Shown here: one piece after another, positions 1 through 35,597 of the stretch
Layout: each line of letters begins with the position of its first letter
Numbering within the stretch: position 1 is the stretch's first letter
IMG/VR virus record: IMGVR_UViG_643348551_000007
DNA length: 35,597 bases
Reading direction: 5' to 3' (one strand)
From: a virus
Taxonomy: Duplodnaviria; Heunggongvirae; Uroviricota; Caudoviricetes
The notes under the pieces: model-generated
The model's database searches: none
Told to the model about the DNA's origin: nothing
What the model saw: only the letters and a program-made list of their open reading frames with translations
Program-made: the position numbers and the translations under genes

Positions 1-62
1 GGTATCCGTTCTGCTGAAGTGTCATGGCGTTGATTTTACGGTGACTCTTCGACAGTGAAAAG

Positions 63-83
63 AAAAAAGGCCGCAGAGCGGCC
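63..83 (-). terminator. Rho-independent terminator candidate ending the int-side (minus-strand) operon
   Basis: GGCCGC-aga-GCGGCC hairpin at 69-83 preceded on the + strand by AAAAAA (63-68), so hairpin plus U-run when read on the minus strand; lies just downstream of the minus-strand gene ending at 209. Confidence 0.45.
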
Positions 84-208: not shown

Positions 209-646
209 TTACTTAATAACAGTAACCACAGCCACAAGCACGGCCATCGCAGACAGGACAATACCTGTGAGTAACCAAGTCTGATTTGCAAATGATTTCT
301 GAAGTTCAGTACGATGCTCAGCCATCTCAACTTTCAGAGACTGGCGTAAATCAGCCATCTCAGACTTCAGGGATTGGCGCGATTCTGCCATCTCAAGCCT
401 CAACCCTTCGCGAATCTCCAGTACATCAGATTTGGTAGCAAAGGATTCGCTTCTTGTGGTGAGAGTAATCAGGTTGTTTTTGATTTCAGTCACATCACTT
501 TCCAGGCAACTGACCCGCCGTTCAAGGTCGTCATTCATGCCATCACCTCCATCATTACCACTTCCTGTTACTTGGTTGTTGGATACATTATAGGCATTCT
601 CTTTCTTTTTTCTGAACCGCGAAATATGTGCAACATTCTCTGCCAT
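209..646 (-). CDS. Hypothetical coiled-coil protein with C-terminal transmembrane anchor (cargo gene downstream of int)
   Basis: ORF track 209..649; first ATG at 646 overlaps the stop of the upstream gene (ATGA coupling); repeated EMAE/LRQSLK heptad-like motifs and hydrophobic C-terminus WLLTGIVLSAMAVLVAVVTVIK; no family recognised. Confidence 0.55.
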   Translation of the reverse strand: MAENVAHISRFRKKKENAYNVSNNQVTGSGNDGGDGMNDDLERRVSCLESDVTEIKNNLITLTTRSESFATKSDVLEIREGLRLEMAESRQSLKSEMADLRQSLKVEMAEHRTELQKSFANQTWLLTGIVLSAMAVLVAVVTVIK

Positions 647-1008
647 CACTTCTCATCACCCTGCTTGCCTACCCAGTTCATAAAGGCCCGGGCCGAGTAA
701 CGATGAACAAACCCACATCTGTTACAGGTAAGTCGGAATTCATAGTTATGGATATTTTCCCGATCATGTCCCTCATATCCCGGATACCCAGTAAATGGAC
801 CGATGTAATCAAGCATAACAAAAGTGCCTAAATCACACTCCTCAGCAGTTTTCGGCTCAGGCCCCACCTCAACAATATTCGTCAAATACATGTACATATC
901 CGTATCGCCACACGACAAACATTTTTCATTCGTAGACGACTCATTGAGAAAACGCGCAAAATTATCGAGCGTTGCCATTCTTTTAAGTTCATCTAAATGA
1001 AACTTCAC
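646..1008 (-). CDS. Hypothetical zinc-ribbon protein (two CxxC pairs), cargo gene downstream of int
   Basis: ORF track 646..1008; CLSCGD and CNRCGF motifs; starts 2 bp after the int stop (GTG at 1008 or ATG at 978); same strand as int. Confidence 0.55.
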   Translation of the reverse strand: MKFHLDELKRMATLDNFARFLNESSTNEKCLSCGDTDMYMYLTNIVEVGPEPKTAEECDLGTFVMLDYIGPFTGYPGYEGHDRENIHNYEFRLTCNRCGFVHRYSARAFMNWVGKQGDEK

Positions 1009-32415: not shown

Positions 32416-33513
32416 ATGACCGACACCACCATGCAATTGCTCAGTCAGGGCACAGACCCCGTGAAAATGCCGGATTTTGATATTCTCGCGGAGGGTAAAA
32501 CGCTGTCAGGCGTGGCAGAGCGCCTGATGAGCCTGTCACTGACCGACAACCGGGGATTTGAGGCGGACCAGCTCACCATCACGCTGGATGATGCGGATGG
32601 TCAGTTGCAGCTACCGCCACGGGGCGCGCGCCTGACGGTTCTCATTGGCTGGAAAGGAGAACCGCTGACAGAAAAAGGCACTTACATTGTTGATGAAATC
32701 GCTCACGAAGGACCGCCGGACAGGCTGACGGTTTCAGCCAGAAGCGCAGATTTTCGGGATGAATTTAACGTTAAACGTGAGGTGTCCTGGCATGATGTGA
32801 CCGTTGAGCGCGTGGTATCCGCCATCGCTCATCGGTACGGTCTGAAACCACAAATCAGCGAAATGCTGATGGATATTGAAATCGACCACGCCGACCAGAC
32901 CGAAGAAAGCGACATGTCCTTCCTTACGCGCATGGCGGAAATGCTGGGCGCAATCACTACGGTAAAAAGCGGTAATCTGTTATTCATCATGCCAGGCGGT
33001 GGCGTGAACGCGCAGGGCCAGCCGTTGCCCTCGTTCGCCATCACACGCAGCAGCGGCGATCGCCATCAGTTCCGCATTGCTGACCGAGAGGCGTATACGG
33101 GGGTACGCGCTTACTGGCTTGATCTTAATTACGGGAAAAAGAAAAAAGTCAGCGTGAAACGCCGTAAACCGAAAATGGAGAAAAGCAGTAGCCGTGAAGG
33201 CGACTATATGGAAGGTGCGGAAGGCAACGTGTTTGTGTTACGCAAGACTTATCAGAACGAACAGGCAGCAAGACGCGCTGCGGCGGCAAAGTGGCAGCAG
33301 CTACAACGCGGAGCCGCATCATTCTCCATCACACTGGCACGTGGACGCGCAGAACTCTACCCCGAAATGCATGGCACGGTAACAGGATTTAAAAGCGAGA
33401 TTGATAATCAGGACTGGATTATTGCAAAAGCCGAGCACACCATTGATAACAGCGGTTTTACCACGCAGCTTGAACTTGAAACAAAAATCCCTGAATGGAT
33501 TGCGCAGACCTAA
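32416..33513 (+). CDS. D: Tail protein D (late control gene D family)
   Basis: LSLTDNRGFEADQL, RSADFR, SWHD, ITRSDGDRH-like, EGDYMEGAEGNVF and SGFTTQLELE blocks match P2 gpD as I recall it; start set at ATG 32416 with GGGAGGG Shine-Dalgarno. Confidence 0.9.
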   Translation: MTDTTMQLLSQGTDPVKMPDFDILAEGKTLSGVAERLMSLSLTDNRGFEADQLTITLDDADGQLQLPPRGARLTVLIGWKGEPLTEKGTYIVDEIAHEGPPDRLTVSARSADFRDEFNVKREVSWHDVTVERVVSAIAHRYGLKPQISEMLMDIEIDHADQTEESDMSFLTRMAEMLGAITTVKSGNLLFIMPGGGVNAQGQPLPSFAITRSSGDRHQFRIADREAYTGVRAYWLDLNYGKKKKVSVKRRKPKMEKSSSREGDYMEGAEGNVFVLRKTYQNEQAARRAAAAKWQQLQRGAASFSITLARGRAELYPEMHGTVTGFKSEIDNQDWIIAKAEHTIDNSGFTTQLELETKIPEWIAQT

Positions 33514-33528
33514 ATGGTGGGAAGATAC

Positions 33529-33567
33529 GGCACAGAGCCAACATAATATACCTGTTTGCTCTGTGCC
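33529..33567. terminator. 10-bp inverted repeat after D (possible terminator)
   Basis: GGCACAGAGC ... GCTCTGTGCC with a 19-nt loop; no clear U-tract. Confidence 0.3.
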
Positions 33568-33643
33568 CGAAATAGGCATCATAAACCTAACGATGAATTG
33601 ATATGCAAGATTATAAAAAATCCGCTGACATTATTTCTCATCG

Positions 33644-34804
33644 TTAATCAAGTTTTTGCTGATGATACCGATACAGCATCATTCTAAGTTTTAGCAAGGT
33701 TGTACTATCATTATCTGCAGAGCAAAAATTATACCAACCTTCAGTATATTTATTTAAAGTATCAAAGTAATAATCCTTCAATGGATCATCCCTATCTGAG
33801 TGGAGACAAGAAAACATCTTCTGAAGAATATAATTTAATTCACCTGTAGGAAGCCTCGAAATAATCACATCACAAGTAGTTGTTAAATCTTCAATATTCA
33901 TTTTCTGAAGATTATTTCTAATCTCTAAAACGATCGGATAGAGTTTACTCAAAAACTCATTTACTTCATCTTGAAGATGCTTCTCTTTAACACAACCATC
34001 AAACAAATGAATTAACTCTTCCAATTGCATTCGGTAATAATCATTATTACCTCGTATAGCGACTTCTGAAAGAAGCAGCCTCAACTCATCATAAATGTTA
34101 TCGGTGGATGATATAACTTGCGCGGACAAAACATCGTAATGGTTGTTACGAATTACCACTATAGAGTCCATTAGTTTTTCTAGATATTTATACCTACTTT
34201 CAACATATGAGATAAGCTCGTTAAATTTAATACCGAAAATAACATCATCCACACCGGGTTTATTATTATAAAGACTTATAGTAAAATCATTATTATTAAG
34301 TGCATAAAAATGAGGCCAACTCGCAAACAATCTCTCCCCGTGGTTATTTTTAAGATTCGTAGGGTGAGCACCAAAAATAGCGCGAACACTCTTAAAATAA
34401 GAGTCATCATCCTCATGCGAAAGATAATGTATTTTATCCTTAAAAATATCAACAGAGCCTTTAAAGGGCCATTTCATAAAATTATTGTCACTTTCAATAA
34501 TACGATGGAGTTGCCGCACCGCTTCCACTATTATATCGATTGATGATATAATAGTATAAATCTGCATAGCTTTAATATCAATGTCTTCAGATATTTCAGG
34601 GATGTTCATAAGATAGCGTACAGAAACAGTAATCCAATCCATGCATGAACAAATAGGGCTGAACTGATTTTTACCATTTCTGTTTATGAAGTAACTATAA
34701 ACAAAATCTCTTTCATTAACTACATCGCGAAAATCCGTTATTAAAGTATCATTAATAGTTATACCAAAATTTGTCTTAGTTATCTTCATGGTGACCATTT
34801 TCAC
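33644..34804 (-). CDS. AT-rich cargo gene, hypothetical 386-aa cytoplasmic protein (possible Abi/HEPN-like)
   Basis: ORF track; strongly AT-rich, opposite orientation to flanking D and ogr; contains an R-x5-H stretch (RAIFGAH); no TM segments. Confidence 0.7.
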   Translation of the reverse strand: MKMVTMKITKTNFGITINDTLITDFRDVVNERDFVYSYFINRNGKNQFSPICSCMDWITVSVRYLMNIPEISEDIDIKAMQIYTIISSIDIIVEAVRQLHRIIESDNNFMKWPFKGSVDIFKDKIHYLSHEDDDSYFKSVRAIFGAHPTNLKNNHGERLFASWPHFYALNNNDFTISLYNNKPGVDDVIFGIKFNELISYVESRYKYLEKLMDSIVVIRNNHYDVLSAQVISSTDNIYDELRLLLSEVAIRGNNDYYRMQLEELIHLFDGCVKEKHLQDEVNEFLSKLYPIVLEIRNNLQKMNIEDLTTTCDVIISRLPTGELNYILQKMFSCLHSDRDDPLKDYYFDTLNKYTEGWYNFCSADNDSTTLLKLRMMLYRYHQQKLD

Positions 34805-35005
34805 ATCAACATTCTCATAGAGAGTAGATTTTTACCGTTATCATATATAAACACAAGTCATCTGGTTATCCGAATCACTATATTTAAAGCAATTAGGTTT
34901 AAACATGCACTCCTGCGCTAACTTTTTGCTCAAGGCGGAGTGGCTGTTGGAGTCTGAGCCAGTACAACTTAAAATAGAACCAGCACCACGTTAAGGGAGG
35001 TCGCT

Positions 35006-35266
35006 ATGTTCCGTTGTCCGCTTTGTGGCGCATCTGCCCGTATCCGCACCAGTCGTCCGGAAAATGATTCAAACACCGTGCGGCAAAAGTATTACCAGTG
35101 TAACAACCTGGAATGCGGCGTATGCTTCTCAACACTGGAAGCTTTCCATAAATTCACATCGAAACACGCCTCCGGCGTTCACTCTTCAGATGGTATCCCG
35201 TGGCATGAGCTGCCAGCTTCACACAGGGGAAACAATCAGATGAGTTTGCCTTTACCTCAGAATTAA
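35006..35266 (+). CDS. ogr: Zinc-finger late-gene transcriptional activator, Ogr/Delta family
   Basis: MFRCPLCGASARIRTSR...YYQCNNLECG parallels P2 Ogr (MFHCPLC...YHQCQNVNCS) with four Cys; AAGGGAGG Shine-Dalgarno. Confidence 0.9.
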   Translation: MFRCPLCGASARIRTSRPENDSNTVRQKYYQCNNLECGVCFSTLEAFHKFTSKHASGVHSSDGIPWHELPASHRGNNQMSLPLPQN

Positions 35267-35456
35267 CAGGCAGAATTGCCGGAGCAACAAAAAAGCGATA
35301 GATTACGCGCGGGTGCCTTTCGGCTGATGGTCGGAGGGAATACCCGAAGGCCAGATGTGGAAAGGCCCCGGAAAACATCTCTGTTTAACCGAGGCCCTAA
35401 CCGCATTACCTTGACAAGTGAAAGGTTAGCGCCTCTCCGGAAAAGGAGCAAGTGCT

Positions 35457-35597
35457 ATGTCGCAAAAATCGCTTACGGCCATCACGTTCTGCGTGACGGC
35501 AATCCTCATCATCTGGATGCTGCACGGTTCGCTGTGCGAAATACGGATGAGCTTCTGGGGAGCGGAGTTTGCGGCGTTCTTACAGTGTAAGCAGTAA
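35457..35597 (+). CDS. Hok/Gef-family type I toxin (46 aa)
   Basis: Not in the ORF track (<60 aa); translation MSQKSLTAITFCVTAILIIWMLHGSLCEIRMSFWGAEFAAFLQCKQ has an N-terminal TM helix plus the SLCEI and AAF signatures of Hok peptides (closest in my memory to HokA); AGGAG Shine-Dalgarno; stop codon is the last 3 bases of the window. Confidence 0.65.
   Translation: MSQKSLTAITFCVTAILIIWMLHGSLCEIRMSFWGAEFAAFLQCKQ

Follow-up and report, generated by a model that had tools for sequence, protein, structure and literature searches.

The window analysed here, the whole 35,597-nt stretch of DNA of an IMG/VR provirus, ends in a short open reading frame (ORF) just downstream of the phage gene ogr, and this arrangement raises three questions: whether the ORF encodes a Hok-family type I toxin, whether it belongs to the prophage or to the host, and whether it is governed by an mRNA switch and an antisense RNA of the kind described for the hok/mok/sok locus (parB) of R1. 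Taking the evidence together, we consider it highly likely that the locus is a hok/sok-type type I toxin-antitoxin passenger placed between ogr and attR of a P88-like prophage and regulated in an R1-like manner.

The gene and its ribosome-binding site are placed as follows:

35457..35597, plus strand: hok toxin gene, 46 amino acids (Hok cluster 72, peptide 72_1621; RefSeq WP_000078916.1)
35443..35448, plus strand: hok Shine-Dalgarno sequence AAGGAG, read from the sequence, 8 nt before the ATG

In the ORF listing of the window this frame starts with ATG and encodes MSQKSLTAITFCVTAILIIWMLHGSLCEIRMSFWGAEFAAFLQCKQ, its TAA stop being the final three bases of the window, so that the 46-codon ORF with a good Shine-Dalgarno sequence proposed in a preliminary description was recovered exactly. 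The same description had assigned the peptide to the Hok family, and this was confirmed by the Pfam profile HOK_GEF (PF01848), which matched above its gathering threshold (29.9 bits against 22, E = 4.1e-7) and aligned peptide residues 7-44 with profile positions 5-42 of 42. The PHROG family phrog_251, labelled 'MokW-like host killing', matched with E = 1.3e-22, and the NCBIfam models HokA (34 bits against 89) and Hok (21.6 bits against 73) both scored below their cut-offs. The phage label derives from hokW-sokW and is misleading, because the gene is neither mok nor hokW. Hok family members have about 45-55 amino acids and one N-terminal hydrophobic helix; the peptide has 46, and its residues 6-22 (LTAITFCVTAILIIWML), read directly from the sequence, are hydrophobic and uncharged, which fits the single N-terminal helix of the family. 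Seven residues (M1, C16, T18, L30, C31, E32 and E41 in the numbering of bioRxiv 10.1101/2025.08.07.668861) are each shared by over 80% of Hok peptides, and alignment with R1 Hok located all of them in our peptide as M1, C12, T14, L26, C27, E28 and E37. By profile match and residue conservation, the 46-codon ORF is a genuine Hok/Gef-family toxin gene.

A large protein search returned 67 relatives of the peptide, some truncated to 25-29 amino acids; the named ones, mostly 46 amino acids long, all come from Escherichia, Shigella, Salmonella or Klebsiella oxytoca and carry the NCBI name 'Hok/Gef family protein', the name that PGAP/RefSeq also gives to the product of this locus. An alignment-based search of a genome collection gave only 6 loci, several of them on contigs with an implausible taxon label. 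Among 5,426 complete E. coli genomes, 1,547 contained the 308-nt locus in 1-7 copies each, and at least 80% of the query was covered in 1,520 genomes. The locus is also 96-98% identical in the P88-like P2 phages P88, P884B11, 500465-2, Chuche, PhiR44_2 and Citrobacter Shae_phiSM, and the same 141-nt coding sequence is annotated in several P88-like phage records (P88 gp52 is a 'hok/gef family protein').

The exact peptide has moreover been catalogued as Hok 72_1621 in a 2026 preprint by Escalera-Maurer et al., where it falls in a high-abundance 60%-identity cluster and was cloned, under the name LRP137, to assay its toxicity on arabinose induction (bioRxiv 10.1101/2025.08.07.668861). In that assay 42 of the 45 Hok homologs were toxic, and the three named exceptions do not include 72_1621 (bioRxiv 10.1101/2025.08.07.668861). 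Since the three non-toxic clones are all other sequences, we infer, from the text of the preprint rather than from a per-clone table, that the bare coding sequence of 72_1621 is toxic when overexpressed, and the toxicity expected of this gene in the preliminary description can in effect be taken as found. The same work reports that hok genes are four-fold enriched in prophages and notes that its analysis did not extend to mok, Sok or the mRNA elements (bioRxiv 10.1101/2025.08.07.668861). Literature searches that combined hok with P2-like phages and ogr returned nothing specific. Gene, family assignment, toxicity and prophage association are therefore all on record already, and the finding as such is correct but ordinary; its research value lies only in the regulatory anatomy of this Hok cluster, which lacks a conserved mok and has a hypervariable loop for Sok recognition, and recent surveys explicitly left this anatomy unanalysed.

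The second question, whether the gene lies in the prophage or in host DNA, had been left undecided in the preliminary description because the provirus caller had cut the record at the last gene and so removed attR. Two features of the window served as reference points:

35006..35266, plus strand: ogr, late-gene activator (Pfam Ogr_Delta, 52.3 bits; RefSeq 'ogr/Delta-like zinc finger family protein')
59..83, no strand assigned: attL core, the 25-bp direct repeat AAAGAAAAAAGGCCGCAGAGCGGCC, located from the annotation of NZ_CP097198

The Ogr_Delta match bears out the identity of ogr, which hok adjoins at the right edge of a P2-like prophage. Positions 33400..35597 of the window share 99.8% identity with E. 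coli strain 2-1 (NZ_CP097198), where gpD is followed by a hypothetical gene, ogr, hok and then ihfA-pheT-pheS; the opposite end of that prophage abuts btuC, and its btuC-side flank is matched exactly by window positions 1..50. A second copy of the 25-bp AAAGAAAAAAGGCCGCAGAGCGGCC lies in NZ_CP097198 264 nt past the hok stop and 18 nt from the ihfA stop. With the att cores at 59..83 and 264 nt beyond the hok stop, hok is placed as the last gene inside the prophage, before attR, which settles the question left undecided. In free phage genomes hok likewise follows D and ogr and precedes variable cargo and int, in agreement with this placement. The prophage is a P88-like (Xuanwuvirus) P2-type element that occupies the btuC-ihfA interval of E. 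coli, and positions 1..58 of the window are host DNA upstream of btuC. Because the core is the ihfA terminator hairpin, which is duplicated at attL, ihfA retains a terminator when the phage integrates between it and btuC.

The window ends exactly at the hok stop, as do dozens of IMG/VR proviruses (L018, L020, L024 and others), and when a boundary caller ends the record at the last gene, both the hok 3' untranslated region (UTR) and attR are dropped. As a consequence the processing hairpin, the fbi element and the terminator are absent from the window, and the 3' UTR was taken from the 99.8%-identical genome (locus L004), whose coordinates plus 27399 give window coordinates.

Other passengers occur in the same prophage. 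A 386-aa ORF (33644..34804, minus strand) lies between gpD and ogr, with a GC content of 0.30-0.35 compared with about 0.53 in the flanking phage genes. It had no match in Pfam, NCBIfam, PHROGs or PADLOC, its homologue was found in only one phage record (phi458, 71% amino acid identity, 'hypothetical'), and it is present in only 3 of the 98 loci compared; it is an orphan cargo gene and possibly a candidate for defence. In related P2-like prophages the gap between gpD and ogr (33514..35005 in the window; loci L014-L093) measures anywhere from 47 to 1,978 nt, and it looks like a variable cargo slot. At the left end, between attL and the integrase gene, a 146-aa protein (209..649, minus strand; RefSeq 'DUF1640 domain-containing protein'; phrog_9415, function unknown) is another small passenger.

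The third question concerns the regulation of hok, and the predicted elements of its mRNA are these:

35276..35281 and 35299..35304, plus strand: predicted hok promoter, read from the sequence, with -35 TTGCCG, a 17-nt spacer and -10 TAGATT
35311..35325, plus strand: predicted hok mRNA 5' end and tac element (GGGUGCCUUUCGGCU), starting at position 1 of the RF01794 match and pairing with fbi or ucb
35360..35369, plus strand: ucb or anti-Shine-Dalgarno box (GAAAGGCCCC), pairing with tac in the truncated fold; its GGCCCC part pairs with GAGG in the full-length fold
35391..35401, plus strand: conserved GAGGCCCTAAC with invariant GAGGC, of which GAGG corresponds to the R1 mok Shine-Dalgarno sequence (numbering as in PMC9841398)
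35431..35436, plus strand: dcb box (GCCUC at 35431..35435), overlapping the anti-Shine-Dalgarno pairing with the hok ribosome-binding site
L004 8208..8229, outside the window: 3' hairpin GACGGGGGAGCAATCCCCCGTC just after the hok stop, 9 pairs, 5 with compensatory changes
L004 8255..8263, equivalent to window positions 35654..35662: fbi AAGGCACCC, complementary to the 5' GGGUGCCUU
L004 8285..8318: terminator of the hok 3' UTR

A consensus promoter scan of the full locus reported neither a hok nor an antisense promoter. The hok promoter was missed because it agrees with the consensus at only 8 of 12 positions; both promoters, which match 7-8 of 12, were instead positioned from homology and conservation. 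The -10 hexamer (TAGATT, TAGAAT or TAAATT) stands at a fixed distance before GGGTGCC in the E. coli, Salmonella, Klebsiella and Sp5 loci; the mRNA would start with this sequence at about 35311, which corresponds to the first position of the RF01794 model. Against the leader (35311..35470, plus strand) this Rfam model gave E = 3.7e-9 and 48.4 bits, below its gathering score of 59, and on an R1-type control (L006 232..403, plus strand) it gave 87 bits on the same strand and at the same position relative to hok. Since the sense strand is matched in the control as well, the model describes the hok leader up to the hok ATG, and its name, 'sok antitoxin', is misleading as to both content and strand.

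The full-length 355-nt RNA was predicted to fold with -162 kcal/mol (z = -7.8), its first 15 nt being paired with the 3' end. In this fold GGCCCC pairs with GAGG (35391..35394) and the hok Shine-Dalgarno sequence lies in a local stem, which in the consensus is formed by CUCU (35433..35436) with GGAG (35445..35448). The 322-nt RNA trimmed after the 3' hairpin refolds: its 5' end pairs with GAAAGGCCCC at 35360..35369, GAGGC pairs with GCCUC (35431..35435) and the hok Shine-Dalgarno sequence is largely released.

These folds were then compared with an alignment of 33 distinct versions of the locus from E. coli, E. albertii, Salmonella, Klebsiella and Sp5. The full-length consensus (RNAalifold with pair counts) had 98.1% of cells paired, with compensatory changes in 21 of 99 pairs; none of 500 shuffles was as good, and slid controls reached 34-43% paired. 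The tac/fbi pairing comprises 7 + 5 base pairs with 98-100% of cells paired and compensatory changes in 4 pairs, all fbi variants being G-U compatible. In the tac/ucb pairing 97.7% of the cells of its 12 pairs are paired, and 4 pairs show compensatory changes at tac columns that also covary with fbi. Tac columns 10 and 11 change from U-A to C-G and from C-G to G-C both against fbi (359, 358) and against ucb (51, 50), as two alternative partners of the same 5' end predict. This covariation comes mostly from one Salmonella/Klebsiella clade, which makes for few independent events, and it was scored on consensus structures derived from the same sequences. The fold-back inhibitory element sought in the preliminary description thus has a predicted counterpart in the covarying tac/fbi end-pairing, and the results support an R1-type mRNA switch with two mutually exclusive pairings of the 5' end.

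In the same alignment the 3' part of the hok coding sequence (GCGGAGTTTGCGGCGTTCTTACAGTGTAA) is invariant at the nucleotide level across genera, synonymous sites included. A predicted 12-bp helix (35460..35473 with 35563..35576), no pair of which is ever lost, joins this region to hok codons 2-6.

The conservation of these pairings also bears on the reading of the locus as a decaying, non-functional hok remnant. Such a fate would resemble that of several E. coli K-12 chromosomal hok loci, which are reported to be mostly inactive (bioRxiv 10.1101/2025.08.07.668861), and the truncated relatives of 25-29 amino acids would be in keeping with it. Here, however, the ORF is intact and nucleotide diversity is lower in the coding sequence (0.018) than in the leader (0.05), while compensatory changes keep the regulatory pairings. 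The coverage in 1,520 genomes noted above, the presence of the locus in viable phages and, as read from the text, the inclusion of the identical peptide among the toxic clones (bioRxiv 10.1101/2025.08.07.668861) likewise speak against decay, so we judge this reading very improbable and already largely refuted.

We then asked whether the R1-like regulation extends to mok, as the preliminary description had suggested on the basis of a long overlapping frame:

35276..35590, plus strand: ORF in the -1 frame relative to hok, TTG start, 104 amino acids, proposed as mok and judged not conserved

The ORF exists, and its frame relation to hok and its stop position are those of mok and hok in R1, but the part of the claim that makes it a conserved mok did not stand. 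Its TTG at 35276 belongs to the -35 hexamer of the predicted hok promoter and precedes the point near 35311 at which the transcript would begin. In the locus GAGGCCCTAAC is followed by no canonical start codon, and no ATG, GTG or TTG occurs at R1-like spacing after the conserved GAGG in any allele. No leader ORF in any frame reaches the hok Shine-Dalgarno sequence in 14 of the 33 distinct versions, including P88, Chuche and the Sp5 copy, and the leader ORFs of the other 19 begin at the non-homologous positions 17, 45, 47, 100, 101, 106 and 113. The -1 frame itself is closed, without a start codon, in phages P88 and Chuche, in the Stx-phage homologue and in others. A leader ORF from AUG 35355 or GUG 35357 behind GAAGG was also considered and rejected; these codons are AAA/AAG in the Salmonella and Klebsiella members and lie inside the tac/ucb stem.

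It may nevertheless be argued that the locus is a canonical R1-type hok/mok/sok, in which the -1 frame, starting at GUG 35357, AUU 35405 or UUG 35411, is a true mok whose translation opens the hok ribosome-binding site and which Sok acts upon by blocking it. In the allele of the window this frame runs uninterrupted from the leader past the hok start, with the R1-like offset and stop, some leader ORF reads through the hok Shine-Dalgarno sequence in the 19 versions mentioned, and in R1 translation of mok up to that sequence is mandatory (PMC9841398). Given that the starts are non-homologous, upstream of the predicted transcript in the case of the 104-codon ORF, or missing from the Salmonella and Klebsiella members as at 35355/35357, we regard a true mok as unlikely, although mok-type coupling may still occur in the window's own allele with its open frame. 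The absence of a conserved mok leader frame, unlike in R1, indicates that control at the hok ribosome-binding site is probably direct, and the overlap of dcb with the hok anti-Shine-Dalgarno pairing makes such direct control a plausible substitute for mok coupling in the predicted folds.

For the antisense RNA, which the preliminary description had placed in the region upstream of hok, three features were defined:

35423..35451, minus strand: predicted sok-like promoter, placed by conservation and homology, with -35 TTGCTC (35451..35446), a 17-nt spacer and -10 TAACCT (35428..35423)
about 35415 to 35358, minus strand: predicted Sok-like RNA of about 58 nt, its ends inferred from promoter spacing and the hairpin
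35402..35422, plus strand: hypervariable block (CGCATTACCTTGACAAGTGAA), top of the predicted Sok-target hairpin and complement of the Sok 5' tail

The promoter hexamers are invariant in 45 E. coli-type versions and differ in Salmonella and Klebsiella by at most one base or a shifted spacing. They occupy the same positions as TTGCGC/TATCCT of the R1-type locus L006, and the -10 also matches the sokW -10 mutated by Takada et al. (PMC8621323). The RNA would consist of an 18-nt 5' tail, a hairpin (GGGCCUCGG...CCGGGGCCU) and a UUU tail, with a folding energy of -26.4 kcal/mol (z = -4.0). The predicted promoter at the R1-homologous place and the predicted tail-hairpin structure are compatible with the proposed sok-like antisense RNA.

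The hypervariable block comprises the 21 nt between GAGGCCCTAAC and AGGTTAG and shows at least 12 alleles among 91 loci. Its nucleotide diversity is 0.22 compared with 0.034 outside, the maximum of all sliding windows, and this pattern fits a predicted role as the Sok specificity determinant. Some Salmonella genomes carry two cluster-72 hok loci in tandem at an apparent prophage/host junction (L094 2501..3131; L095 2501..3135), and these tandem copies differ in their Sok-target loop alleles. Tentatively, we suggest that cluster 72 might represent a natural mok-less hok/sok in which dcb doubles as the hok anti-Shine-Dalgarno element and the 21-nt loop, with its six-fold excess diversity, is under diversifying selection. 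If this possibility were true, the mRNA switch and Sok would act directly on the hok ribosome-binding site, and loop diversity would give co-resident prophages private, non-cross-reacting antidotes.

The predicted structures make an R1-like mechanism very probable, and it would proceed as follows. A primary transcript of about 355-410 nt from about 35311 would be locked shut by end-pairing, with GAGG held by GGCCCC and the hok ribosome-binding site held by CUCU. Slow 3' trimming to the stable hairpin would remove fbi, so that the mRNA would end after the GACGGGGG...CCCCCGTC hairpin and its 5' end would flip onto ucb; GAGGC would then pair with GCCUC (dcb), freeing the hok ribosome-binding site and displaying the variable loop. 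A Sok-like RNA of about 58 nt, short-lived and transcribed constitutively from the invariant predicted antisense promoter, would dock on this loop by its 5' tail, and the duplex would be destroyed, by RNase III as in R1. Once the supply of Sok stops, Hok would be made and the inner membrane depolarised.

As to the role of the system, we prefer prophage stabilisation, followed by assistance in lysis, as for hokW-sokW, and then by phage exclusion. Cluster-72 members are found where several types of prophage meet host DNA, and also in tandem pairs, which suggests a generic passenger module. In the lytic reading, late read-through from the tail operon and ogr would lower Sok, release Hok and speed lysis and phage release. 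The layout is compatible with this: hok shares its strand with ogr and lies only 10 nt beyond the ogr stop codon, a scan of the locus found no terminator-like site between the two, and the predicted sok promoter fires head-on against transcription in the ogr direction. There is also a precedent, since deletion of hokW-sokW halves Sp5 release and sokW RNA drops on induction (PMC8621323). HokW is, however, only 31% identical to the peptide of the window and belongs to another Hok cluster, and the occurrence of cluster members at the ends of other prophage types and in tandem fits a generic passenger equally well, so that a lytic role is possible but doubtful in our view, and stabilisation of the prophage remains our preferred reading.

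Compared with known systems, the locus shares most with hok/mok/sok of R1, for which the tac/fbi, tac/ucb and Shine-Dalgarno/dcb pairings and the element names were described (PMC9841398). Both have the tac/fbi end-pairing with its tac/ucb alternative, the GAGG/anti-Shine-Dalgarno hairpin, the GAGGC/dcb stem, a stable 3' hairpin at which trimming would halt, and, predicted in our case, an antisense promoter in the corresponding position and an RNA of Sok size built from a 5' tail and a hairpin. They differ in the toxin, R1 Hok having 52 amino acids against 46 here and 39% identity over 31 residues, in the start and frame of mok, which are not conserved here, in the dcb box, which here overlaps the hok anti-Shine-Dalgarno element, and in location, in a prophage here and on a plasmid in R1. 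With hokW-sokW of the Stx2 phage Sp5/933W (PMC8621323) the locus shares its nature as a prophage-borne hok/sok module, but HokW has 51 amino acids, is 31% identical over 35 residues, falls in another Hok cluster and is encoded at a separate locus. An 82% DNA match in Stx phages was considered as hokW and rejected, the primers and peptide in PMC8621323 showing that hokW is the other, 51-aa gene. The true Stx-phage homologue at that 82% DNA identity is a second hok of 46 amino acids adjoining lom (peptide 72_1589); this second gene (L007 570..710, Sp5 / VT2-Sakai), just downstream of lom, is unannotated in several records. The closest counterparts are found in Hok cluster 72 (72_1621, 72_1589), where the peptide of the window is identical to 72_1621, and in the P88-like phages, which carry hok in the same place after ogr.
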